64,000 nucleotides of DNA from Leptolyngbyaceae cyanobacterium (GCA_965263355.1 CBDHHL010000056.1:1440001-1504000); one strand, 5' to 3'; shown: positions 8,304-35,774, counted from the first letter of the stretch. Translations and numbers: made by a program. The notes: a model not told the origin generated them from the letters alone.

Positions 8304-8311
8304 GGCAGGTA

Positions 8312-16508: not shown

Positions 16509-17008
16509 TGCAGTAGACCTCCTCGAGCCGCCTCAACGACAGCCTCGGTATGTAGGCCATAAACCCAAACCAGCTTGTCACCCAGATAGACCTGGAACAA
16601 AACAATGGCGGTCAGAAAAACGTTCATGCCCAGATAGGCAACGGGCAATGTTTCTGCGTTACGCAGTCGGATGATATAGCGCCAGCCAGTAATGGCCGCC
16701 AAAATACCCGATAGGGACCAGCCCAACAGCGTATGCAGGTTCAGGTCATTGGCAGCTGTCGTGTACGGGGTGGCTAAGCCAGCCTCAATTTGGCCAAAAA
16801 TAACCGCAATAAAGATGGAAATCGTGGCAAACATCATATTCCACCAGCCCACCTCATACAGACGGGTATTTTTGGTGAAATAGCCGATAAAATCGCAAAT
16901 AACAGCAAACAAAACCATAGCGATCACAAAATGTACCACGATGGGATGAATCGTATCGGGATAGGGCAAATTGTGATTGTTAAGGGGGGGTAAGACGTCT
17001 TGAAACAC
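16505..17008 (-). CDS. DUF2231-like membrane protein
   Basis: HPIVVHFVIA, LHTLLG, YLGDKLVWVYGLH; 4-nt overlap with next gene. Confidence 0.8.
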   Translation of the reverse strand: MFQDVLPPLNNHNLPYPDTIHPIVVHFVIAMVLFAVICDFIGYFTKNTRLYEVGWWNMMFATISIFIAVIFGQIEAGLATPYTTAANDLNLHTLLGWSLSGILAAITGWRYIIRLRNAETLPVAYLGMNVFLTAIVLFQVYLGDKLVWVYGLHTEAVVEAARGGLLQ

Positions 17009-17280
17009 TGGTTGCCTCTAAGAACAAAAACTAAAGCAGCGACAGTTATAGACCTTTCTCTCTAACTAAAATAAAGAATGTCTATCTAAACCTTATCCAC
17101 GTCCAGAACTGGAATTTTGCCGTTAAGGAAACTATGGGTTTCAACTTGGACGTGGTTTAGAGCTATCCTCATATATCTATTACGGCTTAGTTTTTTCCAA
17201 CTAAGCCCAAACTTTTAACTCGCTTTCATATTCTGGCAGTTTTTTCTTAAATCCAACGGGGCTTTGTAGTAATGCCCTTG

Positions 17281-17326
17281 GGAACCTGAGGGAAAAGACT
17301 AAACTTACCAAATGTAAAAAAATGCT
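17281..17326 (-). promoter_or_regulatory. 46-bp conserved motif, copy A (tandem ChlR-like boxes)
   Basis: Minus strand AGCATTTTTTTACATTTGGTAAGTTTAGTCTTTTCCCTCAGGTTCC; 36/46 identical to copy B. Confidence 0.7.
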
Positions 17327-17441
17327 CACCGTCAGCAAGCTAGACACTTCTTAAAAAAAGATTAAAGGTTCAAGAATTCGCTCTCCTCTGCCGACTGTTA
17401 TCTCTAACCTTTAAAGATCCTAATGTTGTAGACCATGTGCG

Positions 17442-18650
17442 TCAGGTTACAGGTTTTTGCAAGCAGTGCCAACAGTCTTGGGCAATGGCCCAATCTTCTT
17501 GGGTATGAATGACGAGAATCCGCACTGTTGAGTCAATAGTGGCGATGTCCTGGTCAACGGGATTATTTTCATTTTTACTGTGATCCAGGGTCAGGCCCAA
17601 AAAGTCCATTGCGCCACAAACAGCGGCTCGGGTTGACGCATCATGTTCACCAATACCGGCGGTAAAAACAATCGCATCTACCCCCCCCAGACTCATGAGC
17701 ATAGACCCCACACAGGCGTTTAGTCGATGGAGATACATGTCATAGGCGAGTTTTGCCCGCGAGTTTCCAGTATCAATTGCCTGTTTAATTTGTCGCAGGT
17801 CGTGGGAGACTCCAGAAATCCCTTTAAGCCCAGATTCTTGATTGAGTAACTGGTCTAGCTGCTCAGCCCTAAGTCCTTGTCGACTCAGATAAATCAGGAT
17901 ACCCGGATCGACCGCACCTGAACGGGTGCCCATCATCAGGCCATCGAGGGGGGTAAATCCCATGGTGGTATCAATGCTCTGCCCATGATCAACCGCGCAA
18001 AGCGAGCCGCCATTGCCAAGATGACAGATCATTAGTCGTAAATCATTACGGCCTAAAATCTGAGCCGCTCGTTGGCTACAATACTGATGACTGATGCCGT
18101 GAAATCCATAGCGGCGGATACCCTGCTTTACCCAATCGTAGGGACCTGGATAAAGCGCGGCAGTGTCTGGTATTTGGCTGTGAAAAGCGGTGTCAAAGAC
18201 GGCTATCTGAGGAATGTTTTCCAACAGGGTTTCCATCAGTTCAATCCCGGCCAGGTTGACGGGATTGTGATTGGGGGCCAGTTGTTTTAAGCGGGCAATT
18301 TCTGCTTTGACGTCTGGTGTAATCAGGGTACTGGTTTGATAGGTTTGTCCGCCGTGAACTACCCGGTGTCCAACCACATCGATATCGGCAAGGGTGGCGA
18401 GCACTTGAGTCGCGCCTTGCCAGAGGGTATTCAGCACCTGGGAAAGAATTTCTGGCTGGGACGTAACATTTAGCGTCCACTCTAAAGCCTGCCCTGACTC
18501 CGTTTTAATCTCTACTATGGCCTGGTGTGGATACCAATCAATCTGGGCTTCCCAAACAGGCTTAGGGGCTGCGTCCGGCAAAGCCTGTCCCAGGGCATAT
18601 AAACAGAGTTTATGACTGCTAGAACCTGCGTTGAGAACGAGAATTTTCAT
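17442..18650 (-). CDS. ackA: Acetate kinase
   Basis: ILVLNAGSSS, GHRVVHGG, RRYGFHGISH, HLGNG, GTRSG, FTAGIGE. Confidence 0.97.
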   Translation of the reverse strand: MKILVLNAGSSSHKLCLYALGQALPDAAPKPVWEAQIDWYPHQAIVEIKTESGQALEWTLNVTSQPEILSQVLNTLWQGATQVLATLADIDVVGHRVVHGGQTYQTSTLITPDVKAEIARLKQLAPNHNPVNLAGIELMETLLENIPQIAVFDTAFHSQIPDTAALYPGPYDWVKQGIRRYGFHGISHQYCSQRAAQILGRNDLRLMICHLGNGGSLCAVDHGQSIDTTMGFTPLDGLMMGTRSGAVDPGILIYLSRQGLRAEQLDQLLNQESGLKGISGVSHDLRQIKQAIDTGNSRAKLAYDMYLHRLNACVGSMLMSLGGVDAIVFTAGIGEHDASTRAAVCGAMDFLGLTLDHSKNENNPVDQDIATIDSTVRILVIHTQEDWAIAQDCWHCLQKPVT

Positions 18651-18710
18651 AGGATTAACGGGAGTACACTTCGTCAGCCAACGGAAAATAAATCATTTTA
18701 CTTTTATAGA

Positions 18711-18905
18711 TTATGTTCCGGCGCGATCGCGCAGTGCTTGGGGCAAATGACTGCGATCTCCCAGACGTTGCAGCATGGGGCCATAGCGACCAAATTGAAT
18801 AACACTCAGGGAAGCCACGGGCATATCGATGCGATCGCGATAATCCCCTGTCTGACTGTGGGTGGTTTCGCCATGTCGGCGAAAATAAAGACTTAATGTC
18901 ATCAA
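18711..18905 (-). pseudogene. Internally deleted histidine phosphatase (PGM-like)
   Basis: N-terminal LYFRRHGETT motif joined directly to a C-terminal YRDRIDMPVASLSVIQFG...LGDRSHL segment; only 64 aa versus ~200 expected. Confidence 0.75.
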
Positions 18906-18946
18906 TCACCTAACCTACATTAATGTCATCAATCACCTAACCTACA
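18893..18946. repeat. Perfect 27-bp tandem duplication
   Basis: TTAATGTCATCAATCACCTAACCTACA twice, covering the RBS/start of the phosphatase relic. Confidence 0.95.
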
Positions 18947-18979
18947 ATCTAAAGCCTAATTACAGAGCATCAAACAAAA

Positions 18980-19014
18980 GAACCATCTTCTTTAGGAAGT
19001 CAAGAAGATGGTTC
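18980..19014 (-). terminator. Hairpin downstream of xfp
   Basis: GAACCATCTTCTT...AAGAAGATGGTTC inverted repeat with T-rich tail on the minus strand. Confidence 0.6.
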
Positions 19015-19027
19015 ATACATTATCTGA

Positions 19028-21448
19028 TTAGCACTTAGTTACATAGGGCCATTTCCAATGAACAATTTCCTCTTGATCCCTACCATGCTCATGGGCATAG
19101 GCAAGACACTCAATGATTTTGTTCTTCATGCGTTCTTTTACGTGTCCCGCTGCCGAGCCCAGTTTGGGGACTCGATTAATCACATCGATCACCAGGTTAA
19201 AGCGATCCACCTGGTTATTGATGGCTAGTTCCAGGGGAGTGTTGATATTGCCTTGTTCCTTGTACCCTCGCACATGGATACGTTCCTGATTAGAACGACG
19301 GTAGACCAGCTTATGAATTAGCCAGGGATAGCCATGAAAATTAAAGATAACGGGCTTATCTGGCGTAAACAGAGAATCAAAATCCCAGTCCGACAAACCG
19401 TGGGGGTGCTCGCCCTCAGACACTAGTTTGAATAAATCCACCACATTGACAAAACGTACCTTTAGCTCTGGAAACTCAGCTCGGAGGATTGCCGTAGCGG
19501 CCAGAGCTTCCATGGTGGGAATATCACCGCAGGCAGCCATCACTACGTCCGGCTCATCTGGATTAGTGCCACAGTCATCGTTGCTGGCCCAATCCCAGAT
19601 GCCAATACCCTTGGTACAATGGGCAATGGCCTCATCCATGGGCAGGTACTGCAGGTGCTTCTGTTTGTCTGAAATAATCACATTGATATAGTTGGTACTA
19701 CAGAAACAGTGGTCGGCCACCGATAACAAACAATTTGCATCTGGTGGGAAATAAACCCGTACTACATCAGGACTTTTATTGGTCACCAAATCGACATAAC
19801 CAGGGTCCTGGTGACTAAAGCCGTTGTGGTCCTGCCGCCACACCAGGGATGACAACAAAATGTTCAACGACGATACTGAGCGTCGCCAGGGCACCTGATT
19901 CCGACAAATATCAAGCCATTTGGCATGCTGGTTAAACATGGAGTCCACTACATGGGCAAATGCCTCATAGGTGTGGAAAAGACCATGGCGTCCGGTGAGT
20001 AGATACGCTTCTAGCCACCCCTGGAGCGTATGCTCACTAAGCATTTCCATCACCCGACCATCGCGAGATAGTTCGCTACCGCCTTCATCCTCTGGATAGA
20101 TATCTGCCATCCAGACCTTTTTAGTCACTTCATAGACATTCTGCAATCGGTTTGATGCGGTTTCATCGGGACCCATCAGACGGAAATTGTCGGGATTTTT
20201 CTGAATGATGTCTCGCATTAGAAAACCGAGTACCCGAGTGTTCTCAAACTCTTCGGTACCATGGTGGTCCATCTGGATGGCATAGTCGCGAAAATCAGGC
20301 ATTTTTAGAGCCTTGCGTAGCAAACCACCGTTAGCATGGGGGTTGGAACCCATACGGCGGTTACCGACCGGAGCTAATGCCTTTAATTCAGGAATTAACG
20401 CCCCTGTCTCATCAAACAACTCGTCTGGTTTGTAGCTACGCATCCACTCTTCTAGCCTACGTAGATGGTCGGGATTATCATGCATCCCGCCCATGGGCAC
20501 CTGGTGAGACCGCCAGAAGTCTTCTACCTTTTTGCCATCAACTTCGGCAGGTCCGGTCCAGCCCTTGGGTGTGCGCAGCACAATCATAGGCCAGCGGGGA
20601 CGCTCTATTTTGCCCGATATACGGGCTTCCCGCTGAATTGTCTTAATCTTTAAGACACAGTCTTCCATTACCGACGCCATCTTCTGGTGCATCTCGGCAG
20701 GATCTTTTCCTTCTACAAAGTAGGGAGTGTAGCCATAGCCTCGGAACAACGCCTCCAATTCCTCATGGGATATACGCGCCAAAATAGTTGGGTTAGCAAT
20801 CTTGTATCCATTCAGGTTCAGAATAGGCAAGACTGCCCCATCCCGTGCCGGGTTGATAAACTTGTTAGAATGCCAGGCGGTTGCCAGAGGACCCGTTTCT
20901 GCTTCACCATCCCCTACCACACAGGCAACAATCAGATCTGGATTATCAAGCACGGCCCCATAAGAATGGGAAACACTATAGCCCAGCTCTCCCCCTTCAT
21001 GGATTGATCCCGGTGTTTCTGGGGTAACATGACTGCCGATAAAACCAGGAAAAGAGAACTGTTTAAAGAATCTCTGCATCCCTTCGGTATCTTCACTTTT
21101 ATCGGGATAGATTTCTGCGTAGGTGCCTTCCAGATAAACAGGACCCAAAACACCCGGTGCACCATGGCCGGGACCAGCCACAAAAATCATGTCTAGGTCG
21201 TATTTTTTGATTAGGTGATTGCAGTGGATGTAGGTAAAGCTCAAGGCAGGTGAAGCCCCCCAGTGGCCCAGTAGTCGATGCTTTACATGTTCAGCCTGAA
21301 GGGGTTCCTTGAGGAGTGGATTGGCACGCAAATAGATCATCCCAACAGCGAGATAGTTGCATGCGCGCCAATAGGCATCAATCTTGCTAAGTTCGTCTTC
21401 AGTTAGGGTAGCTGGCTTGGAAATAGCTTGTTGGACAGCATGAATCAT
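19028..21448 (-). CDS. xfp: Phosphoketolase (XFP)
   Basis: [46 protein letters not shown]. Confidence 0.97.
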
Positions 21449-21502
21449 ACGTATGTTTCCTCAAACAATATGAACTGGTCATTTCTATAAATTTCGGTTT
21501 TA

Positions 21503-21644
21503 AGTAGGCAGGCTCAATCTTTTTTATAAAAATGTGGCAGACCTGTTTAAGGGTCTAGGGTCTGCCCGTCTAGCTAAGCTTAAAAGATCTGCAGTACAGG
21601 AAGACGGGACCTGGAGATTTGCTTGCTAATGGGAACTACCTACT
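21503..21644. mobile_element. MITE-like element in the xfp upstream region
   Basis: TA-AGTAGGCAG...CTACCTACT-TA; same terminal sequence type as the 9607-9769 element. Confidence 0.6.
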
Positions 21645-21699
21645 TAATATCCTCGCAGCTATGCTTGAAAAAACAAGATGCTTTCTGGGGCATGCCTTA

Positions 21700-21745
21700 G
21701 AAACCCGTCGGAAAAAATTAGACTTACCCCAAGTAAAAAAATGCT
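21700..21745 (-). promoter_or_regulatory. 46-bp conserved motif, copy B (tandem ChlR-like boxes)
   Basis: Minus strand AGCATTTTTTTACTTGGGGTAAGTCTAATTTTTTCCGACGGGTTTC, upstream of xfp-ackA. Confidence 0.7.
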
Positions 21746-21850
21746 AATGCCCTTGCTAACGACCATTTTTGAAGAAAAAATGGATTTTTTATGCGAGGCT
21801 ATTGTGATTAGCATTAAAAACATTAGCCTGTCGTCTTTAGACTGAATGAT

Positions 21851-24628
21851 TTATAAATCCTGGTAAACATGGACCTCGCTCCCCCCATGATGAACTGTAA
21901 AACCGAGCTTTTTGCACAGATGTTGCATAGCGCGATTTTCAGGCAAAATCTCTGCAGAAATCTTTTGGAGCTTTTCAGCTCGACCGATGTCTAGCAGAGC
22001 GCGCAACAACACTGTGCCTAACCCTTGACCGTGGTAGCAGTCGCTGACCATCATGCCAAACTCAGCTTCATTACGACCGTGCAGCCGACTGAGACGGGCT
22101 ACCCCCAGGATCGAGCGCTGACCGGTCTCAGGTTCGTTATGTTCTGCCACCAGCGCCATTTCACGGTCGTAGTCAATAAAACAGATGCGGGTAAGGCGCT
22201 CATGGGAAATCCGGGTCTGGAGCTTAATTAAATGAAAATATCGAAAATAAATGCTCTCTTCTGAGAGCGTTTGGTGGAAGGCGACAATCAGCGGTTCATC
22301 TTCTGGTCGGATGGGGCGAATGGTCACTGCTACACCATTTGTCATGGTCCAGGGTGTAACATATTGCACAGGATAGGGGCGAATGGCGGGTTTCGGTAGG
22401 GATTGCTCCTCTGGACCATGGAGAACTACCCGCGCATCCAGGGCCAACAGCTGGTCAGAAGACACCAGCAGCGGATTGATATCGATCTCTTTAATTTCAG
22501 GATAGGTCACCACCAGCTGGCTAAATCTCACCAACAGCTGCTCCAGAGCATTAAGATCGACGCTGGGCTGTCCCCGTACTCCCTGGAGGGCCTTGTATAT
22601 CCGAGTTTTTTCCATCAGACGCCGGGCCAAGGTGGTGTTGAGAGGGGGGAGCCCCAGGGCGCGATCGCGATAGACCTCCACCAGCTGACCGCCACTGCCA
22701 AACAGCAGCACGGGGCCGAGTTGTTGATCAATACTACTGCCCACAATCAGCTCATAGCCCTTGAGGGACACCATCGGCTGCACCGTTACGCCCAAACAGT
22801 CTCCCGGCTGGCCAATGGCGGCAATGGCCTGATAGGCCGCTCTCACTGCAGCCTCGTCCGCTAGATTTAGCTTGACGCCCCCCACATCGGTTTTGTGAGT
22901 AATGGTGTGGGAATGCAGTTTGAGCACCACCGGATAGCCGATTTGCTCAGCCAGAGCCACCGCTTCATTGGCTGATTTAGCTAAATAAGTGGTAACGGTA
23001 GGAATACCATAGGCACTGAGCAACTGTTTAGATTCCCACTCACTCAATAACAACCGGTTGGCGGCCCTGGCCTCCGTCAACAACTTGGGAATTACCTGGG
23101 TATCTAAATCAGGAGTTGTTGTTAAGCTAGGTGTCTCGTAGAGCGCGTGCAGATTGTCGCTATACTGCGCCATCAGCGTAAATACGTGGGCCGCTGCATC
23201 GGGATAGGGCAAGGTAAAAATACTGCTCTGATTCAGCTGGTCCTCACCGACGGCCACCCTATCCATCCCCATCCAGCTGGCCAACAGGGGTTTGTTTTTC
23301 CAATGGTGGGCCCTTTTCTGCAGCTGGGCTGCAGTTTCCGTGGGTTGGGTCATGGCCTGGGGAGTGAGAATTACCAGCAGACCATCACTATTAGGATCCT
23401 GGGCCAATACATCCAGGGCTGCTCCATAACGTTCCGGTGTAGCATCCCCCAAAATATCGATGGGATTCTGACGGCTCCAGTGGGTGGGCAACAGCTGATC
23501 CAGAGCATCCACCGTTTCCGTACTCAAGCGTGCCAGTTCTCCGCCGCTACGGATCAGGGCATCGGTGGTCAGTACCCCTGGTCCCCCAGCATTGGTTAGA
23601 ATTGTCAACCGCTTGCCGCGAGGTCGGGGTTGTTTACCCAGAACTTCGGCTAAATTAAACAGCTCATCAATGGTGTTAACCCGCAGCACACCACAGCGAC
23701 GAAAGGCCGCATCCAATGCCTCGTCACTGCCGGCCATAGCCCCAGTGTGGGAAGCCGCCGCCTGGGCTGCCCGCTGGGTGCGCCCGGACTTAATTACAAT
23801 GATGGGCTTGCTCAGGGCAACTTCTCTCGCTGCCGAGAGAAACGATCGGGCATTACCGATGGTTTCCATGTAAATAACAATACTCTCGGTGGCCGGGTCA
23901 TCCCCCAGATAGTAAATTAAATCTCCCCAGTCAATGTCCACCATGGAGCCAATGGACACAAAAGCGCTAAAGCCCACATTCTCCCGCAGACTCCAGTCTA
24001 AAATTGAAGTGCAGAGCGCCCCACTCTGACTAATAAAGCCCACGCTGCCTGCCCGAGCCATAGTACTGGCAAAAGTGGCATTGAGGCCGCTGGTTGGGCA
24101 CATCAGCCCTAAACAATTGGGGCCCAGAATGCGCACATGATGACGTCGTGCGGCAGTCAAAACCTCCTTTTCTAAGGCCACCCCAGCTGCACCAATTTCC
24201 CTAAACCCAGCAGAGAGAATGATCACCCCTTTGACCCCGGCCTGTCCACATTGGTCAATCACCGCTGGCACCCCATTTGAAGGGATAGCGATAATGGCTA
24301 GATCGACCACCTCAGGGACTTCGCCAATGGTTGGATAAGCTTTGATCCCAAGCACATTGGAGCGGGTTGGATGGACTGGAAAAACAGTGCCACCAAACGA
24401 ACTGCTAATCAGATTCCATAGCAGGGTACGGCCAACACTACCGGGACGTTCGGTAGCACCAATTACAGCAACAGTTTGAGGGGCAAAAAAGGGAGAGAGG
24501 GGCTGATAATCGTAACGAAAAATGTCGTGGGCCGGATCGGGACAGCGCAGAGTTAGCGACTCTGCCCTCGATTTATCGGCGATGGTCTCGGTTCTACCAC
24601 TAGAGGTAGCTACATCAAATATTGTCAT
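21851..24628 (-). CDS. Acetate-CoA ligase (ADP-forming) family / GNAT acetyltransferase fusion
   Basis: CoA-binding VAVIGA, GPNCLG, SQSGA, ASHTG; ATP-grasp [16 protein letters not shown]-terminal [12 protein letters not shown]...GQGLG. Confidence 0.93.
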
Positions 24629-24994
24629 AAAACAATGCCTCCAACATCTCCTACTATGTCTAGAGTGACTTACCTAGCGGATTAACTGCTTATAACTGCG
24701 AGGCATACTAATAGAGCTTTTAGAGCGTCAGTGCTCTATTTACCCACGGATCCAGATATGGTCATTACGGTAAAGGGATTATATTTTTACTAGCTTTTAT
24801 TCGCTAATCCTTAAAAGGAGGATACCCTCAGGTCACTTCACTTCAGAGTGTATCTCGTTTCTTTTTAGTTGTTTGCATCAATCTAACCAATGAATTCTTA
24901 TTTTTTTATTTGAATGTGATGCGCGACACCAAAAACCCTCAAGACTGGTAACAACGACAACATTATGACAGGCTTGCTATGTCCAAACTTCAGA

Positions 24995-25060
24995 GTTTTG
25001 AAACATTATTGTTGTTTATATACACAGGCTTTAGGGTTTTGAAACATTGCTGTTGTTTAT
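24995..25060. repeat. 25-bp direct repeat in the divergent promoter region
   Basis: GTTTTGAAACATTATTGTTGTTTAT (24995) and GTTTTGAAACATTGCTGTTGTTTAT (25036). Confidence 0.8.
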
Positions 25061-25448
25061 GTAAGATTGTTGCAATAAATCAGAATGCTTATTAAAAGAT
25101 AACGCTACTGTAAACTGTAACGAAAATGTCTGCCACTCTGAAACTTTTTGCTATATTGAACAAGTAAGCAAGATTACTCACTAAATAGTTTTTGGGGCAT
25201 TGTTCATCAGGTTTTAATGCACTCTTCAGTATCAATGCGTAAATACTCTTCAGAGTATATCTGTTAGGTTCTATGTAGTAACAGGCGTCTTAGAGGATCA
25301 TCAATCCTCCGTAGAATTCCCCAAAAATACTACGAAATTCTAAGGCTTGTTAGATAGAAATCTCTTCATTAGTTTGGATCTTGCTTGCTAAGAACCTGAA
25401 CATATCAAAACAGCCAGTGCAGTACGTTTGCTGGGAGATTAATAAGTC

Positions 25449-27734
25449 ATGAGTATTGCCAATACCACAGTTCACCAAAAAAGTCAGACAGGGGTTTCAG
25501 TCAAGCCTGTTCAACCGTGGCGTCAGTTTACACCAGGAACCTGGATGACTGAAGTCAACGTTCGAGACTTTATTCAAAAGAACTATTCCCCCTATGAAGG
25601 AGATGGGGCGTTTTTAGTGTCGATTAGCGATCGCACCCAGCAGCTCTGGGATAACGTCACCGATTTAATGCGCTTAGAGCGGGAGCGGGGCATTTTAGAC
25701 GCCGACAATCAGCTACCCACGGGAATTACGGCCCACGCACCGGGATACATTGATCAGCGCCTGGAGCAAATTGTCGGTCTACAAACCGACAAGCCCTTAA
25801 AACGAGCCATTATGCCCCTGGGCGGTATTCGGGTGGTAAAAAAATCCCTGGAAGCCTACGGTTACGAGATTGATCCCCAGACACTGGAGATTTTTACCAA
25901 GCATCGTAAAACCCACAATGACGGCGTATTTGATGCCTACACTGCAGAAATGAAACGGGCGCGCCATGCGGGCATTATCACCGGGTTACCCGATGCCTAC
26001 GGACGGGGCCGCATCATTGGCGACTATCGTCGGGTCGCGCTGTATGGTTGCGATCGCTTAATTCTAGATAAACAACAGCAGCTGCAATCTTTGGAATTAG
26101 ACGTTCTGGATGAAACAGTGATTCGTCAGCGTGAAGAGATTGCTGAACAAATCCGAGCCTTGCAAGAACTGAGACAGATGGCCACTGCCTACGGCTGTGA
26201 TATTGCCAGACCCGCCTCCACCGGTCAGGAGGCGGTGCAGTGGACCTATTTTGGTTATTTAGGCGCGATTAAAGAACAAAATGGCGCTGCCATGTCCCTG
26301 GGACGAGTGTCAACGTTTTTAGATATTTATATCCAGCGGGATCTGGCCAATGGCGACCTGACCGAAGTCGAGGCCCAGGAGCTGATCGACCAGTTTGTAA
26401 TGAAACTGCGCATGGTGCGATTTCTCCGGGCTCCTGCCTACAATCAGCTGTTCTCAGGCGATCCCGTATGGGTGACTGAGTCCATTGGTGGCATGGGTCT
26501 AGACGGTCGTCCCCTGGTAACCAAAACCAGCTTCCGCTGTTTGCAAACCCTCTACAATTTAGGGCCAGCCCCAGAACCCAATCTCACCGTGCTGTGGTCA
26601 GAACAGTTGCCCCGAGGGTTTAAACAGTTCTGTGCCAGAGTGTCTAAAGACACTAGCTCAATCCAGTATGAAAACGATGACCTGATGCGGGCTGACTATG
26701 GCGATGATTATGGCATTGCCTGCTGTGTATCGGCCATGCCCATTGGCAAACAAATGCAGTTTTTTGGAGCCCGCGTGAACCTGGCTAAAGCGCTACTCTA
26801 TGCCATCAATGGGGGTAAGGATGAAAAGTCAGGAGAACAGGTGGCTCCTGCCTATGCACCGGTTGCGGGAGACTGGCTGAACTACGATGAGGTAATGCCC
26901 AAATTTGATATCCTGATGGCCTGGTTAGCCAAGCTGTATGTGAATACGCTCAATGTGATTCACTACATGCATGACAAATATTGCTATGAGCGGATAGAAA
27001 TGGCTCTCCATGACCGAGATGTCTATCGCACCATGGCCTGTGGCATTGCCGGACTGTCAGTGGTGGCGGATTCTCTCTCGGCCATTAAGTACGGCCAGGT
27101 AAAAGTCGTTCGCAATGATGCTGGACTAGCGGTTGATTATAAGGTCTATGGCGACTATCCTGCCTTTGGCAACAATGATGAGCGGGTGGATGCAATCACG
27201 TCGGATCTTGTCCGTCGATTTATGAATCACATTCGTCAGCATAAGACCTATCGCAACGCCGTACCCACCCAGTCAATTCTCACCATCACGTCCAATGTGG
27301 TCTATGGCAAAAAGACTGGCAGCACTCCCGACGGGCGTAAGGCGGGTGAGCCCTTTGCGCCTGGAGCTAATCCCATGCACGGTCGCGATACCAAAGGTGC
27401 GATCGCAGCCTGTGAATCCGTGGCCCATCTCCCCTACCAACACGCCCAGGATGGTATCTCCTACACCTTCTCTATTGTGCCTGATGCCCTGGGTAAAACC
27501 GATGTGGATCAGGTCAACAATCTAGTCGGTTTGTTAGACGGCTACTTTCACAACACAGGACAACACATCAATGTGAATGTGCTCAACCGTGACACATTGT
27601 TAGATGCCATGGAACATCCTGAAAAATATCCCCAGCTAACAATTCGGGTTTCGGGCTACGCAGTGAACTTTATTAAACTCACCCGTGAGCAACAGATGGA
27701 TGTGATCAATCGGACCTTCCATAGTCGGTTCTGA
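25449..27734 (+). CDS. pflB: Pyruvate formate-lyase
   Basis: IACCVS catalytic Cys pair; RVSGY glycyl-radical motif. Confidence 0.98.
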
Positions 27735-27751
27735 TAGTTGTCTCCACAGAC

Positions 27752-27777
27752 GGGGCAGGCACGAGGCCTGCCCCTAC
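27752..27777 (-). repeat. GTAG-type REP-like palindrome between pflB and pflA
   Basis: Minus strand GTAGGGGCAGGCCTCGTGCCTGCCCC. Confidence 0.55.
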
Positions 27778-27812
27778 CTTTCAATTTCTCCTAGCCAGAG
27801 GATTGTTCTCTT

Positions 27813-28577
27813 ATGTTAATTCCTCGTTTAGCCTCGCCTTTGCCCACTGCTGTCACAGGTCGTCTTCACTCAATTGAAACCTGCGGCACCGTTGATGGCC
27901 CCGGTATTCGCTATGTCGTGTTTACCCAGGGATGTCCGCTGCGATGTTTGTATTGCCACAATCCTGACTGTCGCACCGTGGAAGGAGGACGCGAAGTGAC
28001 CGTGGCTGAGATTATGACCGATATTCTGCGCTACCGGACTTATTTGGAGGCATCTGGCGGTGGCGTGACGGTTACCGGAGGCGAACCCTTGATGCAGCCT
28101 GAGTTTGTTGCAGAATTGTTGCGCTGCTGCCAGAATGAAGGCCTGCACACAGCGCTGGACACCTCAGGATTCTCTGACCTGGCAGCAGCCCGACAAGTAT
28201 TACCCTATACCGATCTTGTTTTACTCGACATTAAGTCCTTTGATCGAGACCTTTTTCAACGGGTCACCCATGTTTCTCAAGCCCCCACCCTGCGGCTGGC
28301 CAACTACCTTAAAGAGATTCAAAAACCCGCCTGGATTCGGTTTGTTTTAGTCCCCGGACTCACCGATCCCGAAAACAATGTAGAAGGATTGGCAGAGTTT
28401 GTTGCCACATTGACTAATGTTGAATGGGTGGAAGTTTTACCATTTCATCAAATGGGGGCCTACAAGTGGAAAGCCTTGGGCTATGACTATCAGCTAAAAG
28501 AAACAATTCCCCCCAGTCAAGACCAAATTGAGCACGTGAAAACGCTATTTCAACAGCATGGATTAAACGTTCGCTAA
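27813..28577 (+). CDS. pflA: PFL-activating radical SAM enzyme
   Basis: GTVDGPGIR, CPLRCLYCHNPD (CxxxCxxC), TGGEP. Confidence 0.97.
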   Translation: MLIPRLASPLPTAVTGRLHSIETCGTVDGPGIRYVVFTQGCPLRCLYCHNPDCRTVEGGREVTVAEIMTDILRYRTYLEASGGGVTVTGGEPLMQPEFVAELLRCCQNEGLHTALDTSGFSDLAAARQVLPYTDLVLLDIKSFDRDLFQRVTHVSQAPTLRLANYLKEIQKPAWIRFVLVPGLTDPENNVEGLAEFVATLTNVEWVEVLPFHQMGAYKWKALGYDYQLKETIPPSQDQIEHVKTLFQQHGLNVR

Positions 28578-28591
28578 AGGATTGTTGAATT

Positions 28592-31255
28592 ATGACATCA
28601 CTATCGTCTCCCACTGATGTTCGGGTCAATACCCTGAAAAGTTTAGAAGAGTTAATTTCATACGTAAAAAAAGCCCAGGAGATTTATGCGGGCTTTGATC
28701 AGGCCCAGGTAGATGCGATTTTTAAGCAGGCAGCGATCGCAGCCAATAATGCCCGTCTGCCCCTAGCTAAACAAGCCGTTGCCGAAACCGGCATGGGGGT
28801 GATCGAAGATAAGGTGATCAAAAATCACTTTGCCTCGGAATATATTTACAACAAATATAAGCATGAAAAAACCTGTGGGATAATCTACTCCGATGTGCAC
28901 TACGGCATCCAGAAAGTAGCCGAACCCATTGGAGTGATTGCGGGGATTGTGCCCACCACCAACCCCACGGCCACCGCTATCTTTAAGGCATTGCTTTGTC
29001 TCAAAACTCGCAACGCCATTATTTTTTCTCCCCATCCCCGCGCTAAGGCCTGCACCATTGCGGCAGCTAAAGTGATCCGAGATGCGGCTGTCAAAGCAGG
29101 GGCTCCCGTAGATCTCATTGGTTGGATCGATGAACCCACCCTGGAACTCTCCCAGGCATTGATGCAGCACCCTGATATTAAACTGATTCTAGCCACGGGC
29201 GGCCCTGGCATGGTCAAGGCCGCCTATTCCTCTGGCCATCCGTCTTTGGGGGTGGGAGCAGGCAATACCCCAGCGCTAATTGATGAGACCGCCGATATCC
29301 AAATGGCCGTGAGTTCAATCTTACTGAGTAAAACCTTTGATAACGGCATGATCTGTGCATCGGAACAGTCTGCTGTGGTCGCTGATGAGATTTACGACGA
29401 CGTTAAGCAAGAGTTTATTAAGCGGGGGGCCTATTTTCTCAACCCAGACGAACAGACCCGAGTGGCTCAACTCCTGCTCAAAAATGGGCGGCTCAATGCT
29501 GAGGTTGTGGGGCAGCCGATTACCCAGTTAGCGCAGCTGGCTAATTTGAAGGTTCCTGAAGGGACCAAACTCCTGATTGGTGAAGTCAACACCATTGGTC
29601 CGGAAGAGCCCTTCTCCTATGAAAAACTTTCACTGATTTTAGCACTATACCGGGCATCGGACTTTGCTACGGGGGTAGAACAGGCTAAACAGCTGGTGAA
29701 CTTTGCCGGACGGGGTCATACGTCGGTACTGTATACCCATCCTGACAATCGCGATCGCATCGTTCAATTTGAAAATGAACTGGCCACATCGCGGGTATTA
29801 ATCAATACCCCGTCTTCCCAGGGAGCCATTGGCGATCTCTATAACTTTAAGCTTGATCCCTCACTTACCCTGGGCTGCGGCACCTGGGGTGGCAACTCTG
29901 TTTCGGAAAATGTTGGTGTGCACCATTTACTCAATGTCAAAACGGTAACTGAACGGCGAGAGAATATGCTGTGGTTCCGCGTGCCCCCCAAGGTTTATTT
30001 CAAATCGGGGTGTATTCCCGTAGCCCTGGGGGATCTGGCCCATAAAAAGCGGGCCTTTATTGTGACCGACCGACCATTGTTTGACATGGGCTTTACGAAA
30101 GAGATTACTGACACCCTAGAAACCCTTGGCATTGAGCATCACACCTTTTTTGATGTGGAGCCCGACCCATCTCTCTCGACGGTGCAGCGGGGGTTAGCCG
30201 TGATCAACACCTTCCAGCCCGATGTGATTATTGCCCTGGGTGGGGGGTCTCCCATGGATGCCGCTAAGGTGATGTGGCTGATGTATGAGCATCCTGAAGT
30301 GGAGTTCGAAGGTCTGGCCATGCGGTTTATGGACATTCGCAAACGGGTGTACGAGCTGCCGCCCCTGGGAGAAAAAGCGATTCTTGTCGCCATTCCTACC
30401 ACATCGGGCACCGGTTCCGAAGTGACCCCCTTTGCCGTGGTTACCGACGACCGGGAGAGCATCAAATATCCGCTAGCGGACTATGCCCTCACCCCCACCA
30501 TGGCCATCATTGACCCAGAGCTGGTGCGGCACATGCCCAAAAAGCTGACCGCCTATGGTGGTATCGATGCCCTCACTCACGCATTGGAGGCCTATGTTTC
30601 TGTGCTCGCCACCGAGTTTACCGATGGGTTAGCGCTCGAAGCCATTGGGCTGTTAGTGCAATATCTCCCCCGTGCCTATCAGCATGGTCCCAACGACCCG
30701 GAAGCTCGGGAGAAAGTTCACTATGCCGCCACCATCGCTGGTATGGCCTTTGCCAATGCGTTTCTCGGCATCTGTCACTCCCTGGCCCACAAACTTGGGT
30801 CCACATTCCACGTGCCCCATGGCTTGGCCAATGCGCTGATGATTTCCCATGTGATTCGGTATAACGCCACTGATGCCCCGTTTAAGCAGGCGATCTTCCC
30901 CCAGTATGAGTATCCTCAGGCTAAGGCAAGATATGCTGCGATCGCAGATTCACTCCAGCTTGGGGGCAACACCGATGACGAGAAAGTAGATCTTTTAATC
31001 GAGGCGATTGAATCCTTAAAACAACAGGTGGATATCCCCAGCAATCTACGAGCGGTGCTGAGTGAAGATGAGCACACCTTCTTTGAACATCTGGATCTAA
31101 TGGCCGAGCAAGCCTTTGATGACCAGTGTACGGGGGCCAACCCTCGCTACCCTCTGATTCAGGATCTTAAGGCACTCTACATTGCAGCCTATCGCGACGG
31201 TCTTGCTGTTCCACAATCAACGACTGCAGCCGCAATGGAGGAGGTCGCCCACTAA
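28592..31255 (+). CDS. adhE: Bifunctional acetaldehyde-CoA/alcohol dehydrogenase
   Basis: PTTNPT, FDNGMICASEQ, LGCGTWGGNS, GGGSPMDAAK, HSLAH, HGLAN. Confidence 0.98.
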   Translation: MTSLSSPTDVRVNTLKSLEELISYVKKAQEIYAGFDQAQVDAIFKQAAIAANNARLPLAKQAVAETGMGVIEDKVIKNHFASEYIYNKYKHEKTCGIIYSDVHYGIQKVAEPIGVIAGIVPTTNPTATAIFKALLCLKTRNAIIFSPHPRAKACTIAAAKVIRDAAVKAGAPVDLIGWIDEPTLELSQALMQHPDIKLILATGGPGMVKAAYSSGHPSLGVGAGNTPALIDETADIQMAVSSILLSKTFDNGMICASEQSAVVADEIYDDVKQEFIKRGAYFLNPDEQTRVAQLLLKNGRLNAEVVGQPITQLAQLANLKVPEGTKLLIGEVNTIGPEEPFSYEKLSLILALYRASDFATGVEQAKQLVNFAGRGHTSVLYTHPDNRDRIVQFENELATSRVLINTPSSQGAIGDLYNFKLDPSLTLGCGTWGGNSVSENVGVHHLLNVKTVTERRENMLWFRVPPKVYFKSGCIPVALGDLAHKKRAFIVTDRPLFDMGFTKEITDTLETLGIEHHTFFDVEPDPSLSTVQRGLAVINTFQPDVIIALGGGSPMDAAKVMWLMYEHPEVEFEGLAMRFMDIRKRVYELPPLGEKAILVAIPTTSGTGSEVTPFAVVTDDRESIKYPLADYALTPTMAIIDPELVRHMPKKLTAYGGIDALTHALEAYVSVLATEFTDGLALEAIGLLVQYLPRAYQHGPNDPEAREKVHYAATIAGMAFANAFLGICHSLAHKLGSTFHVPHGLANALMISHVIRYNATDAPFKQAIFPQYEYPQAKARYAAIADSLQLGGNTDDEKVDLLIEAIESLKQQVDIPSNLRAVLSEDEHTFFEHLDLMAEQAFDDQCTGANPRYPLIQDLKALYIAAYRDGLAVPQSTTAAAMEEVAH

Positions 31256-31271
31256 ATTTCAAACGCTATCT

Positions 31272-31328
31272 AACGATCCCCCAAGTGACTTCTATCTGAG
31301 GAGACTGTTACAGTCACGGGGGATCGTT
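31272..31328 (+). terminator. Long hairpin between adhE and glgX
   Basis: AACGATCCCCC...GGGGGATCGTT inverted repeat. Confidence 0.55.
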
Positions 31329-31392
31329 GACTGTTAACAATTGAGCTAAGTATGGCAGAATCTAGGTACCCACAAGGAGGTCCCAAAATGAA

Positions 31393-33474
31393 ATGGTATC
31401 AGCAACAGGCACGGATACTACCCTAGCTATTCAACCCGGTGACAGTTATCCCCTAGGTGCGACGGTTCGCGATGGCGGCGTTAACTTTTGTCTGTATGCA
31501 CAGGGGGCCATAAACGTAGCGCTGCTACTCTTTGAGACAGCGGATTCTCCTCAGCCCCACCGGGTTGTTCAGCTAGATCCAGGGGTTAATCATACATTTC
31601 ACTACTGGCATGTGTTTGTTGCTGGTTTGGGAGCTGGGCAGGTCTATGGGTATCGGGTTGACGGCCCCTACAATCCAGACAGTGGTCAGCGGTTTAATTC
31701 GAATAAGGTGCTGCTTGATCCCTATGCCCGTTCCGTTGTCGGCTGGCAAACCTATTCTCGTCAGGCTGCCACTGACGACTCCGACAATTGTGCCCAGGCC
31801 TTGCGAGCAGTTGTTGTAGACCCACTGCATTACGATTGGGACGGCGATAGGCATCCTAAAACTCCCTATGCTGCCACGATAATCTATGAGTTGCATGTGG
31901 GCGGGTTTACCCAACATCCTAATTCTGGTATCGCGGCCAACAAACGGGGCACCTATGCTGGCTTGATGGAAAAAATCCCATACCTTCAATCCTTAGGGAT
32001 TACGGCAGTAGAGCTGATGCCGGTACAACAGTTTGACCCCAACGATGCGCCATCTGGCAAAACCAACTATTGGGGCTATAGTCCAGTGGCCTTTTTTGCC
32101 CCCCATCGACAATATAGTTCCAGGCAAGGCTGTATGGGGCCAGTGGATGAATTTAGAGATTTAGTAAAGGCGCTACATCGAGCTGGCATTGAGGTAATTT
32201 TAGATGTGGTCTTTAACCATACGGCTGAAGGCAGTCAGGAGGGACCAACTTTGTCGTTACGGGGGTTAAGCAACGAATCGTACTACATTCTTGAAGATAA
32301 CAAAGTTTTTTACAAAAACTACAGTGGCTGTGGCAATACCCTGAAAACCAGTGCGATTACTGGCTATCTTATTTTAGATTGCCTGCGCTACTGGGTCTCA
32401 GAGATGCATGTGGATGGCTTTCGCTTTGATTTGGCCTCTGTGCTGTCCCGCGATACGACCGGTGAACCCTCAAACAATCCACCGATTTTGTGGATGATTA
32501 ATACGGATCCAGCCCTGGCAGGCACCAAAATTATTGCAGAGGCCTGGGATGCGGCAGGTCTGTATCAGGTAGGGAATTTTGCGGGAGAGCGGTTTGCTGA
32601 ATGGAATGGCCCCTATCGAGATACCACACGACGGTTTGTCCGAGGAGATAATGGGGTGGTTCAAGCCCTGGCGGATCGGATTGTGGGCAGTCCCGATTTC
32701 TATGAGCAGTCCCAGCGAGGTCCCAATTACAGCATTCATTTTGTTACCTGCCATGATGGCTTCACCCTCTATGACCTCGTCAGCTACAACGACAAACATA
32801 ACCTGGCCAATGGTGAGGATAATCGCGACGGAAATGACACCAATTGGAGTTGGAACTGTGGTGTAGAAGGGACAACCCATGATCCGGCAGTTCAAACCCT
32901 ACGGCTCAAACAGGCTAAAAATTTCTTTACCCTATGGGCCATGTCCCAGGGGACACCCATGATGCTAATGGGGGATGAGGTGTTGCGATCGCAACAGGGA
33001 AACAACAACGCCTACTGTCAAAATAATGAACTCAGCTGGTTTAACTGGGATGGGACCACCACCCACAGTGATTTTCTTCGATTTGTAAAAGAGTTAATTA
33101 CTTTTATCCAGTCCCTGGAGCTTTTTAAGCATGACTTTCCACTTATCGTTACCCCTCAGTCCATTCTGGAGCCAGCCATTAGCTGGCATGGTGTCAAGTT
33201 AGGAAATCCTGACTGGAGCCATGAGTCCCATAGCCTTGCTTATACCCTATCGTATCAAAAGTATTATGAACGACTTCACATCATGCTGAATGCTTTTCAC
33301 GCCCCCCTGACCTTTGAACTTCCCCCGCTGCCCGATGGTCAATCTTGGCGACGCATCGTAGATACTGCTTTAGATGCTCCAGAAGACTTTTGTCCGGCAA
33401 CGGGTGCCCCTAAAATTGATGCAAATTTTTACCAGGTTGAGCCCCGTAGCTCAGTCATTCTGATGGCTAACTAA
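31393..33474 (+). CDS. glgX: Glycogen debranching enzyme (GH13 isoamylase)
   Basis: YPLGAT, NYWGY, DVVFNHT, DGFRFDLAS, AEAWD, HDGFTL, GNNNAYCQ. Confidence 0.96.
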   Translation: MVSATGTDTTLAIQPGDSYPLGATVRDGGVNFCLYAQGAINVALLLFETADSPQPHRVVQLDPGVNHTFHYWHVFVAGLGAGQVYGYRVDGPYNPDSGQRFNSNKVLLDPYARSVVGWQTYSRQAATDDSDNCAQALRAVVVDPLHYDWDGDRHPKTPYAATIIYELHVGGFTQHPNSGIAANKRGTYAGLMEKIPYLQSLGITAVELMPVQQFDPNDAPSGKTNYWGYSPVAFFAPHRQYSSRQGCMGPVDEFRDLVKALHRAGIEVILDVVFNHTAEGSQEGPTLSLRGLSNESYYILEDNKVFYKNYSGCGNTLKTSAITGYLILDCLRYWVSEMHVDGFRFDLASVLSRDTTGEPSNNPPILWMINTDPALAGTKIIAEAWDAAGLYQVGNFAGERFAEWNGPYRDTTRRFVRGDNGVVQALADRIVGSPDFYEQSQRGPNYSIHFVTCHDGFTLYDLVSYNDKHNLANGEDNRDGNDTNWSWNCGVEGTTHDPAVQTLRLKQAKNFFTLWAMSQGTPMMLMGDEVLRSQQGNNNAYCQNNELSWFNWDGTTTHSDFLRFVKELITFIQSLELFKHDFPLIVTPQSILEPAISWHGVKLGNPDWSHESHSLAYTLSYQKYYERLHIMLNAFHAPLTFELPPLPDGQSWRRIVDTALDAPEDFCPATGAPKIDANFYQVEPRSSVILMAN

Positions 33475-33489
33475 TCGTCAGATTTGGCG

Positions 33490-33876
33490 TTATCCCATAA
33501 CGTGTACCTTTTCCATAATTGTGTTGGCCGTTAGCGGACAGGCACAGCTGTCTTGCTCTAGCCATTGTTGACCCACCTGATGCAGGGCGGTTATCACCGG
33601 TTGCAACTCTTTACCCTTATCCGTAATAGCGTACTCAACCCGTGGAGGCACCTCTGCATAGGTCCGTCGTGTCACTAGCCCGTGTTCCTCTAAATTTCGA
33701 AGTCTCACCGTTAATGTTTTAGAACTGATACCGGGCAACGCTTTTAGCAGCTCATTAGTCCGGCGATCCTGCTCCCAAAGCTCCCGCAAGATTAAAATTG
33801 ACCACTTACTGCCCAGGATATCTACTACGAACTGAATAGGGCACGTTGACGTCAAACAATCACCAGTAGTGGGCAT
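33490..33876 (-). CDS. chlR: ChlR-like O2-sensing HxlR/MarR-type transcriptional activator
   Basis: wHTH (KWSILILREL, SKTLTVRLR, PPRVEY) with two N-terminal Cys (C-x4-CP) and C-terminal CxC, as in [4Fe-4S] ChlR; near chlAII and ho2. Confidence 0.85.
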   Translation of the reverse strand: MPTTGDCLTSTCPIQFVVDILGSKWSILILRELWEQDRRTNELLKALPGISSKTLTVRLRNLEEHGLVTRRTYAEVPPRVEYAITDKGKELQPVITALHQVGQQWLEQDSCACPLTANTIMEKVHVMG

Positions 33877-34000
33877 GGGCTATTTCCAAATAATGCATGT
33901 GCCCCGATTATCCTTAATTCTTTAATTCTTGCCTCCTAAAAAAGCTTAAGAATTTCAAAAATTAAGATTTATTTAAGGCATTTTCTTAACCCTGAAAGCA

Positions 34001-34046
34001 AGCAATTTTTTACTCCAGGTACGTTTAATTTTTTCCCTAGGGTTGC
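34001..34046 (+). promoter_or_regulatory. 46-bp conserved motif, copy C (tandem ChlR-like boxes)
   Basis: AGCAATTTTTTACTCCAGGTACGTTTAATTTTTTCCCTAGGGTTGC; 36/46 identical to copy B, 35/46 to copy A. Confidence 0.7.
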
Positions 34047-34228
34047 TAACCCGCTTGCTAGAAACAGCCTTGTAATTTTAGAAAACCATAGGAAGATAAT
34101 AGTGGCGCTGGCAAGAGAACATCAACAGATCGTTGTTAGTGTCTGCGTTAAGCGTTCTCCAGGCCACTCTACAAACGAGCACTTATGCTGACTGAGCCAT
34201 AACTGCTTACTCAAAGGAGACTTCTCAA

Positions 34229-34373: not shown

Positions 34374-35087
34374 ATGGATAGCAAGGAATTGCTACAGGCA
34401 TATAACGCTGGTGAACGCGATTTTTCGGGATTGACACTTTTAGAATTAGAGTTGCTGCAGCTTGAGCTAAGTGATGCCAACTTTAGCCAATCCGATTTGC
34501 GTCAGTCTCGCTTAGGTCGTACGCACTTTTGTCGTGCTAATTTCGAGCTTAGTAACTTAAGCGAATCTCTTCTTTGGGGCAGCGATCTACGCAATGCCAA
34601 TTTGAAAAATGCTCAGCTACGAGAGGTGGATTTAAGTAGTGCGCTTTTGAATCACGCCAATCTAGAGCGGGCTAACTTAATAAAAGCTAGTCTATGTGGA
34701 GCCACCTTGAACGGTGCCAATCTCGCGATGGCCCGTTTGCTAGACGCTGATTTTCGTTCAAATGCTGACCAGAGAACTGATTTGGGAGAGGCGAACCTAA
34801 GTCAAGCCGACTTGAGCTATGCACTTTTAAACGGTGTGATTTTGCGAGGAGCCAATTTGTCGGAGGCTACATTGTGTCGTGCTAAATTGGGCAAAGACTA
34901 TCGCCCAGGCAGTTTTCCGACCGACCTTAGTGAAGTCAATCTCCAGGGTGCTGATCTTAGCTATGCTGACTTGACCGGTGTAAATCTAAAAGAGGCTGAC
35001 CTTACGGGCGCTGACCTCACGGGCACATTATTGTATCAAGCCAATCTCTATCATGTAACTATGCCCAATGGGCAACGCCATGAGTAA
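34374..35087 (+). CDS. Pentapeptide repeat protein
   Basis: ELLQAYNAGERDF N-terminus, A(N/D)L repeats, MPNG end. Confidence 0.92.
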   Translation: MDSKELLQAYNAGERDFSGLTLLELELLQLELSDANFSQSDLRQSRLGRTHFCRANFELSNLSESLLWGSDLRNANLKNAQLREVDLSSALLNHANLERANLIKASLCGATLNGANLAMARLLDADFRSNADQRTDLGEANLSQADLSYALLNGVILRGANLSEATLCRAKLGKDYRPGSFPTDLSEVNLQGADLSYADLTGVNLKEADLTGADLTGTLLYQANLYHVTMPNGQRHE

Positions 35088-35297: not shown

Positions 35298-35774
35298 TTA
35301 ATGTGCTTTTTTAGTTTTTGTTGCAGCGATCGTAAGATTTCTACGAAGCAGGGTGATTTGCGCCTGGAGATGCTGCACCGATTCTGGGGTTAGCCCAGTG
35401 GCATCAAGAAGACAGCTTGGAATTTTAAGCGCCTTTTCCTTGAGCCCTTTTCCCTGCTGTGTCAGACAGATAAGGACTTGACGTTCATCGGCAATATCTC
35501 GTTGTCGAGTAATATGGCCCATTTTCTCTAGGCGCTTTAATAGTGGCGTCAGGGTGTTCGACTCTAGGAACAATTGTTTGCCTAAGCTTTTGACAGTTTG
35601 TTTATCCTTTTCCCATAGCACGACCATCATGATGTACTGCGGATAGGTTAGACCCAGTTCCTCAAGTAGTGGTTTATAAACACGGTTCATCGCATGGTTC
35701 GCAGAGTAAATGGCGAAACAGAGGAAACTGTTGAGATTAAGAAGCTCTTCAGGCTGGGGGGCAGGAGCGGGCAT
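35298..35774 (-). CDS. ohrR: OhrR-like MarR regulator
   Basis: LCFAIYS with the sensing Cys, LGLTYPQY, TLTPLLKRLE, DERQV. Confidence 0.85.
   Translation of the reverse strand: MPAPAPQPEELLNLNSFLCFAIYSANHAMNRVYKPLLEELGLTYPQYIMMVVLWEKDKQTVKSLGKQLFLESNTLTPLLKRLEKMGHITRQRDIADERQVLICLTQQGKGLKEKALKIPSCLLDATGLTPESVQHLQAQITLLRRNLTIAATKTKKAH

Follow-up and report, generated by a model that had tools for sequence, protein, structure and literature searches.

We analyzed a 64,000-nucleotide stretch of DNA from a Leptolyngbyaceae cyanobacterium (GCA_965263355.1 CBDHHL010000056.1:1440001-1504000; hereafter the window, with positions counted from its first letter), in which three copies of a repeat precede a predicted operon for an ARTO-type oxidase, the phosphoketolase gene xfp and a gene for a pentapeptide-repeat protein, respectively. 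We consider it likely, from sequence comparison, that each of these repeats forms the upstream half of a promoter cassette about 100 bp long, and that the regulator ChlR would act at these cassettes to activate xfp, the ARTO operon and the pentapeptide gene when oxygen is low. The acetate kinase gene ackA is probably included with xfp among the targets of the second copy. As judged from its alignment with other promoters, the feature is a variant of the ChlR promoter cassette with two boxes in tandem.

Three tandem-box cassettes and a divergent chlR gene

To establish whether the repeats differ from chance, the window was scanned with the degenerate (IUPAC) pattern of the initial annotation, and 100 dinucleotide-preserving shuffles of the window served as the control. 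The pattern matched with 0 mismatches at 17283-17326 and 21702-21745 on the minus strand and at 34001-34044 on the plus strand, and the shuffled sequences gave 0 matches. The three ungapped copies that had been reported are therefore a real, non-chance feature, and their pairwise ungapped identity over the first 46 nt, given earlier as 35-36 of 46 positions, was reproduced (0.76-0.78). When the whole intergenic regions were aligned, the ungapped likeness of the copies extended about 55 nt further toward the genes, which indicates that the unit measures about 100 nt and that the 46 bp are its upstream half. Over 100 nt the three copies are 63-65% identical to each other and 59-70% identical to the tandem cassettes of other organisms described below, and the columns that are invariant among tandem cassettes are the boxes and the core elements. 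Because the identity within the window is no higher than that between organisms, and because the boxes and core are conserved, the likeness suggests selection rather than the recent spread of a repeat. All three copies are located 250-330 bp upstream of genes. Each is oriented into its downstream gene, and the genes named in the initial annotation (DUF2231-ARTO-GMC, xfp-ackA and the pentapeptide gene) were recovered in these positions with Pfam.

Each cassette contains two boxes, a third half-site and weak core promoter elements in the same order. Copy 1 (17228-17326, minus strand), upstream of two DUF2231 genes, ctaCII, ctaDII, ctaEII and a GMC gene, has box 1 at 17305-17318, box 2 at 17282-17295 and a third half-site at 17262-17267 (all elements of this copy were placed by hand). 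A −35-like hexamer at 17251-17256 and a −10-like hexamer at 17228-17233 follow, with a predicted start near 17221 and a predicted leader of about 210 nt. In copy 2 (21649-21745, minus strand), upstream of xfp, the corresponding elements are box 1 at 21724-21737, box 2 at 21701-21714, the half-site at 21681-21686 and the hexamers at 21671-21676 and 21649-21654, which would give a start near 21642 and a leader of about 195 nt. Copy 3 (34001-34097, plus strand) is divergent from chlR and points into the pentapeptide-repeat gene; it has box 1 at 34009-34022, box 2 at 34032-34045, the half-site at 34060-34065 and the hexamers at 34070-34075 and 34092-34097, with a predicted start near 34104 and a predicted leader of about 270 nt. 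In all three copies, 23 bp separate the centers of the two boxes (measured by hand), and the third half-site stands about two helical turns downstream of box 2. The −35-like hexamers fit the sigma-70 consensus at 3-4 of 6 positions and the −10-like hexamers, placed 16-17 bp after them, at 3 of 6. Such a weak fit is expected for an activator-dependent promoter.

The published ChlR consensus is TTMCC-N3/4-GGWAA (Aoki 2012, as quoted in passages of PMC13421787 and PMC5295598). By hand comparison, and with the N3 reading of this consensus, box 1 has 1, 1 and 2 departures from it in the respective copies. The initial annotation had described two ChlR boxes in each copy, both degenerate; two boxes are indeed present, but box 1 is good and only box 2 is weak. 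The regions upstream of chlR in other cyanobacteria show how this arrangement relates to the common single-box form. There, the one strong box is followed by conserved, trinucleotide-rich sequence; the second half-site comes 21 nt behind the first, and a −35-like hexamer is next, with a −10-like hexamer 16-17 nt beyond it. From box 2 onward, the proximal halves of the window copies align column for column with this form, with one 1-nt gap, and they also align with the promoters of acsFII genes that stand divergent from chlR in other cyanobacteria. The single strong box of the common form occupies the position of box 2 in the window. The distance from the right half of box 1 to the third half-site is 42 nt in the window type versus 21 nt in the common form. 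This difference of 21 bp, or two turns, implies that an additional strong box stands upstream in the window type and lies on the same helical face. Box 2, at the canonical place, reads as decayed in the window type.

The gene divergent from copy 3 (33490-33876, minus strand) encodes a 128-residue winged-helix regulator that Pfam assigns to HxlR (1.1e-31), and a chlR-type gene is thus present in the same window as the boxes. Its translation contains Cys7-x4-Cys12-Pro near the N-terminus and Cys110-x-Cys112-Pro near the C-terminus. In excerpts of PMC4500134, ChlR (Sll1512, 135 residues) is described as similar to HxlR and OhrR, and the 4-Cys ChlR type is defined by an N-terminal Cys-x4-6-Cys-Pro motif. 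In our alignment, the four Cys columns are kept in 11, 12, 12 and 12 of 12 orthologue rows, and three of them are missing in both of the two paralogues. The window protein is 56-75% identical to the orthologues and at most 49% identical to the paralogues. Despite its Pfam label, the gene is by these sequence features the 4-Cys ChlR orthologue, and a non-ChlR identity of HxlR type was dropped in view of the description of Sll1512 and the Cys pattern. The placement of copy 3 divergent from chlR in the initial annotation was therefore confirmed, with the qualification that the neighbor scores as HxlR, not MarR, but carries the ChlR Cys pattern. A separate OhrR-like gene of the MarR/SarA family (35298-35789, minus strand) is the only mainly-MarR Pfam call of the region and could be mistaken for chlR. 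ChlR orthologues are rare and clearly distinct from the paralogues: a phylum-wide sample of 401 genomes had them in 27, and a sample of 401 from one order in 70. The closest orthologue in these two samples has 75% identity, and neither sample contained a near relative of the window organism.

By homology to validated ChlR promoters, the oxygen-labile [4Fe-4S] regulator ChlR would here activate weak core promoters while oxygen is low. Dimers of holo-ChlR would occupy in-phase boxes at about −86, −63 and −42, and the bound protein would recruit RNA polymerase to the weak core. The predicted transcription start is about 7 nt beyond the −10-like hexamer, which would give leaders of 195-270 nt. Destruction of the [4Fe-4S] cluster by oxygen would switch the promoters off. 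A constitutively active ChlR variant, D35H, has been described for Synechocystis.

Cassette models and their matches in other genomes

To search beyond the exact pattern, we used two sequence-only covariance models. R1 was built from 10 chlR-divergent cassettes of other cyanobacteria together with the three window halves, and the leave-out model R2 from the 10 foreign cassettes only. R1 returned its own training copies at E=5.1e-10 (copy 1), 4.4e-13 (copy 2) and 3.2e-13 (copy 3), and a single box at 39171-39184, between acsFII and a HemF-type gene, at E=0.044. R2 was run on the window with filters off. Its best match in the 64 kb was copy 3 (E=1.4e-5), followed by copy 2 (E=4.5e-4), which was aligned as box 1, a 23-nt insertion and the proximal part. 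The acsFII/hemF box was third (E=0.0067), and the next matches were box 1 of copy 3 (E=0.12) and box 1 of copy 1 (E=0.14).

The cassette was then followed across cyanobacterial genomes. With R1 at E<=1e-3, 25 of 28 ChlR-bearing genomes contained a cassette, for a total of 32 matches. The genes behind these matches encode AcsFII (14), phosphoenolpyruvate (PEP) synthase (5), PTOX (4), PsbA (2), HemN (1) and a PepSY_TM protein (1); one match is followed by a small open reading frame (ORF) and then Rieske and desaturase genes, two are unresolved, and for two the sequence was not retrieved. With stricter filters, 29 of 48 further ChlR genomes also gave a match, bringing the total to 54 of 76. At the same threshold R1 had no match in 40 cyanobacterial genomes that lack a ChlR orthologue; these include carriers of HxlR paralogues, and one partial match among them reached 0.007. 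The occurrence of the cassette is thus tied to chlR across genomes.

As a test we used a genome outside the R1 training set whose PsbA1 and cyclase 2 proteins are identical to those of Synechocystis sp. PCC 6803. Its best two R1 matches genome-wide (E=1.4e-8 and 6.8e-7) are upstream of chlAII and psbA1, and the next match exceeds 0.3; R2 met the chlAII promoter at 1e-12 and the psbA1 promoter at 2.1e-6. According to section 3.3 of PMC4500134, chlAII-ho2-hemN is activated by ChlR and the psbA1 promoter is bound by it in electrophoretic mobility shift assays. The proposal that the repeats are ChlR-type sites is therefore supported by the fit of the boxes, by the chlR-linked cassettes and by the recovery of chlAII and psbA1, but for copy 1 it holds at the level of one box only. 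By independent evidence copy 1 is the weakest member of the set, in which it is placed chiefly because it resembles copies 2 and 3.

When one genome per species (185,579 species) and a metagenome collection were scanned for the exact pattern, 3 and 10 loci, respectively, were returned. Five of the 13 score as cassettes, two have boxes without a core promoter match (L104 and L110, neither with a cassette-level R1 match), and six look like chance pattern matches (the metagenome loci L105-L107, L109 and L111, and L002 from a Clostridiaceae genome). Two of the species-scan loci (L001 and L003) belong to cyanobacterial metagenome-assembled genomes, and in both the motif precedes a chlR orthologue by about 134 bp and faces away from it. 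The tandem cassette of L003 points into an AOX/PTOX gene that begins 24 nt after it, and that of L001 faces the 3′ end of a convergent gene. The metagenome cassettes (L102, L103 and L108) have E-values from 1.8e-8 to 1.2e-3. L102 represents a third lineage in which a tandem cassette adjoins a chlR orthologue, and in L108 the cassette is upstream of a receiver-domain gene. At 1068-3092 of L003, a Pyr_redox_2 gene, which we guess to encode a sulfide:quinone reductase, and a DUF302 gene adjoin the chlR cluster. L103 carries the L001 form of the cassette and has, at 7681-8982, a 433-residue ORF in a setting like that of L003.

Among 49 chlR loci from other cyanobacteria, 25 have the single-box form on the divergent side of chlR (nhmmer, E<=1e-3). 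The first ORF behind it encodes AcsF in 18 loci, PTOX in 2, PpsA in 2 and Xfp in 1, and in the remaining 2 there is no ORF. Two genomes provide precedents for xfp: in G613, a canonical chlR-divergent cassette stands 269 nt before xfp, and in G672, a PTOX gene stands first behind the cassette, with xfp 213 nt after it on the same strand. The chlR gene that faces the xfp cassette in G613 (L092, G613:C6:42195-45563) has one in-frame TAG, so it could be a pseudogene or contain a sequencing error. PTOX is situated beside chlR and behind a ChlR-type cassette in L003, G318, G019, G292 and G672. The PEP synthase gene ppsA follows a ChlR-type cassette by 196-270 nt in seven genomes (L041, L044, L057, L058, L060, L099 and L101), often in a divergent pair with chlR or with a second chlR paralogue, and the ppsA cassettes of G683 and G559 are additional to the five among the first 28 genomes. 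An NMO/FabK-like gene is a further predicted target elsewhere. In G427 (L098, G427:C4:72500-80000) there are two divergent cassettes. One faces psbA (D1′), and the other faces a YgaP-like/DUF2892-Rieske cluster, behind which come hoxU- and hoxH-like hydrogenase genes in the same orientation.

Several of these genes are known to respond to oxygen limitation. Passages of PMC5295598 report that in Acaryochloris the ptox gene AM1_1551, located next to chlR (AM1_1552), rises more than 45-fold in micro-oxia, and that psbA1 and the DUF2892 and Rieske genes AM1_0448-0450 also rise. Since the genes associated with the cassette elsewhere match these micro-oxia-induced genes, we count this agreement in favor of ChlR acting at low oxygen. 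ChlR is known for the control of pigment synthesis. On balance, we lean toward the broader view that it may be more than a specialist of that pathway and may stand at the center of a low-oxygen regulon, widespread in cyanobacteria, that comprises PTOX, here the ARTO operon, alternative D1′, Rieske electron-transport, PEP synthase and phosphoketolase-acetate kinase genes. Such a regulon would grow by the gain of whole cassettes of about 100 bp, sometimes with an in-phase box added.

Gene setting in the window and the reach of the regulon

Genes of the window were identified by ORF calling and Pfam. The predicted operon of copy 1 (11098-17008, minus strand) consists of two DUF2231 genes, ctaCII, ctaDII and ctaEII for an ARTO-type heme-copper oxidase, and a GMC oxidoreductase gene. 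These genes are contiguous on one strand and presumably form one operon, with 273 bp between copy 1 and the first DUF2231 gene. The longest ORF for ctaCII (14923-16173) overlaps the second DUF2231 ORF (15873-16508) by 300 nt on the minus strand, and the true start of ctaCII is probably further downstream. Copy 2 is 252 bp from its predicted target xfp (19028-21448, minus strand; XFP_N/XFP/XFP_C in Pfam), and ackA (17442-18650, minus strand; Acetate_kinase, 2.4e-132) follows on the same strand. Two terminator-like hairpins were seen near these genes, both on the minus strand. One, at 17324-17340 after ackA, has a T-run that is also the T-tract of copy 1, so that terminator and operator overlap. 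The other, at 21538-21557, falls within the predicted leader of xfp, where it may act as an attenuator. Copy 3 is separated by 328 bp from its predicted target, the pentapeptide-repeat protein gene (34374-35087, plus strand; Pentapeptide, 8e-44), and by about 125-130 bp from the start codon of the divergent chlR. An hpf relic had been suggested in the leader of copy 3. This suggestion found no support, as the 38- and 29-residue ORFs there have no Pfam match even at E<=10.

The genes pflB, pflA, adhE and glgX, together with a gene for a fusion of ADP-forming acetyl-CoA synthetase and GNAT, are situated between copies 2 and 3. The fusion gene (21851-24628, minus strand), between xfp and pflB, encodes 925 residues with the GNAT acetyltransferase at the C-terminus. 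Further downstream, acsFII (37966-39030, minus strand) is divergent from a HemF-type gene (39318 onward, plus strand), which is followed by a heme oxygenase gene. The partners of acsFII in the window are thus HemF-type (Pfam Coprogen_oxidas) and heme oxygenase genes, not hemN as in the model strains. The ChlR box at 39171-39184 is midway between acsFII and the HemF-type gene and has 1 departure from the published consensus. The intergenic region 39031-39317 contains this single box and no full cassette on either strand. A 6S RNA is encoded at 62242-62425 on the plus strand (Rfam RF00013, 98.9 bits).

The initial annotation had proposed that ChlR acts here as an FNR-like master switch of anaerobic carbon metabolism and respiration. 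Neither R1 nor R2 gave a cassette or box match in the window before pflB-pflA-adhE, the ADP-forming acetyl-CoA synthetase gene or glgX. The description as a master switch of fermentation is therefore too wide, and we do not retain it. The narrower proposal, that ChlR reaches both fermentation and an alternative oxidase, fared differently in its two parts: the xfp part has precedents in G672 and G613, but the oxidase part is weakened by the E-value of copy 1 in the leave-out search and by a survey of ARTO-type loci elsewhere. For this survey, 30 DUF2231 loci were collected from 29 ChlR genomes, and 28 of them (L141 and L142 were left out) were scanned with R1 with filters off. No cassette was found at any of the 28 loci (best E=0.44).

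This result belongs to a number of observations that weigh against the interpretation given at the outset. With 0 of 28 ARTO loci carrying a cassette, control of an oxidase by ChlR has precedent only for PTOX, and copy 1 itself, the ARTO copy, was met by R2 only at box 1. In section 3.3 of PMC4500134, RNA sequencing of a chlR mutant of Synechococcus 7002 is reported to give only acsFII, ho2, hemN and desF as targets, and excerpts of the same review document a regulon of four genes in each of two model strains; a narrow regulon is therefore the documented norm. Co-transcription of ackA with xfp across their gap of 377 bp is an assumption. Within the cassettes, box 2 is weak, with 3 departures from the consensus in every copy by hand comparison, and its right half is not retained in the tandem cassettes of L102 and L108. 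The −35- and −10-like hexamers, being weak, were not called by a generic sigma-70 promoter scan. As to the searches, 24 of the 49 chlR loci have no cassette by nhmmer at E<=1e-3, and the genome searches scored only the best 94-150 first-look candidates per genome. The training set of R1 included the window copies and 10 of the first 28 genomes (10 of 76), and many chlR-adjacent matches may reflect shared ancestry.

Alternative readings and comparison with known systems

The alternative that survives best is that ChlR binds the cassettes but acts otherwise than at acsFII, the extra box far upstream perhaps making it a repressor or anti-activator, or that the sites serve mainly in chlR autoregulation at copy 3, so that xfp and the ARTO operon are not induced at low oxygen. 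We regard this as improbable. Most MarR-type proteins are repressors according to section 3.2 of PMC4500134, and the tandem geometry is unlike that of the validated single-box promoters, but the core promoter and the distance between box and core are as in activated promoters. The chlR start codon is a mere 130 bp or so from copy 3, and in L001, where a convergent gene turns its 3′ end toward the cassette, chlR may be the sole client; in L003, however, the tandem form points into PTOX, 24 nt before the ORF. The chlR-adjacent PTOX gene of Acaryochloris, known here by gene order, is the one whose strong rise in micro-oxia was cited above (PMC5295598), which also speaks for activation.

It is less probable still that another protein, such as an HxlR or MarR paralogue or a regulator with promoters in common with ChlR, reads the repeat, and that its likeness to the ChlR box is incidental or reflects the ancestry of the site. 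Candidates are at hand, as the HxlR family at E<=1e-20 occurs in 189 of 401 cyanobacterial genomes, mostly as paralogues, and the OhrR-like MarR gene of the window is only 1.3 kb away. The invariant spacer positions between box 1 and box 2 are, in addition, not accounted for by the published ChlR consensus. Nevertheless, the cassette tracks ChlR orthologues, being absent from all 40 genomes without one, the carriers of paralogues included, and it marks both published ChlR targets in the 6803-type genome.

That the repeat is no ChlR operator at all, but mobile or dispersed DNA or the structured leader of an RNA, is very improbable, because, against the short inverted repeats that flank copies 2 and 3, the hairpin and T-run that overlap the start of copy 1 and the long leaders, there are just three copies in 64 kb, all placed at promoters and in the same orientation relative to genes, they are as diverged from each other as from the copies of other lineages, and the exact pattern is rare among the genomes and metagenomes scanned. 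The individual candidates of this kind were also rejected. The six folds (three copies, both strands) were ordinary, with z from −1.30 to +1.07, and a gathering-threshold Rfam scan of the window gave no family at the copies and only the 6S RNA elsewhere. A dispersed repeat or miniature inverted-repeat transposable element was set aside in view of the number of the copies within the 64 kb, their positions upstream of genes and their divergence over 100 nt.

If ChlR does activate these promoters, the finding bears on the induction of fermentation and alternative respiration by low oxygen in cyanobacteria, which is little understood. The cassettes before xfp, the ARTO operon, PTOX and ppsA are concrete promoters for testing, and they suggest that an oxygen-labile Fe-S sensor may link pigment synthesis with electron sinks and with ATP-yielding carbon cleavage. 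The models R1 and R2 can be used to predict the ChlR regulon in any cyanobacterial genome, and the cassette is a candidate oxygen-responsive promoter part for engineering. Judged from the listings of searches in the open full-text literature, there was no report of ChlR control of phosphoketolase, a terminal oxidase or PEP synthase, subscription journals being outside this coverage.

In Escherichia coli, FNR has an oxygen-labile [4Fe-4S] cluster that gates DNA binding and activates respiratory and fermentative genes. ChlR resembles it in principle as an oxygen-labile [4Fe-4S] activator, but FNR belongs to the unrelated CRP/FNR family, binds another site and commands a global regulon, whereas the window has three cassette promoters in 64 kb and its pfl-adhE genes are without one. 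A closer parallel in gene order is found in Acaryochloris marina, where an oxidase gene is located beside chlR (AM1_1552/AM1_1551); the comparison is based, on the Acaryochloris side, on gene order and on the published induction, which is not linked to ChlR in the available passages of PMC5295598. The oxidase of Acaryochloris is the di-iron quinol oxidase PTOX, whereas that of the window is a heme-copper ARTO. The chlAII(acsFII)-ho2-hemN(-desF) and psbA1 promoters of Synechocystis 6803 and Synechococcus 7002 differ from those of the window in that the latter add a strong box 21 bp upstream, have a degenerate box at the canonical position, and would drive the phosphoketolase gene, the ARTO-type operon and the pentapeptide gene, which are not among the ChlR targets reported so far in the literature searched. 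The regulator in these strains is nevertheless of the same 4-Cys ChlR type, the palindromic box is the same, and the box, the downstream half-site and the weak core follow one another in the order and spacing found in the window.

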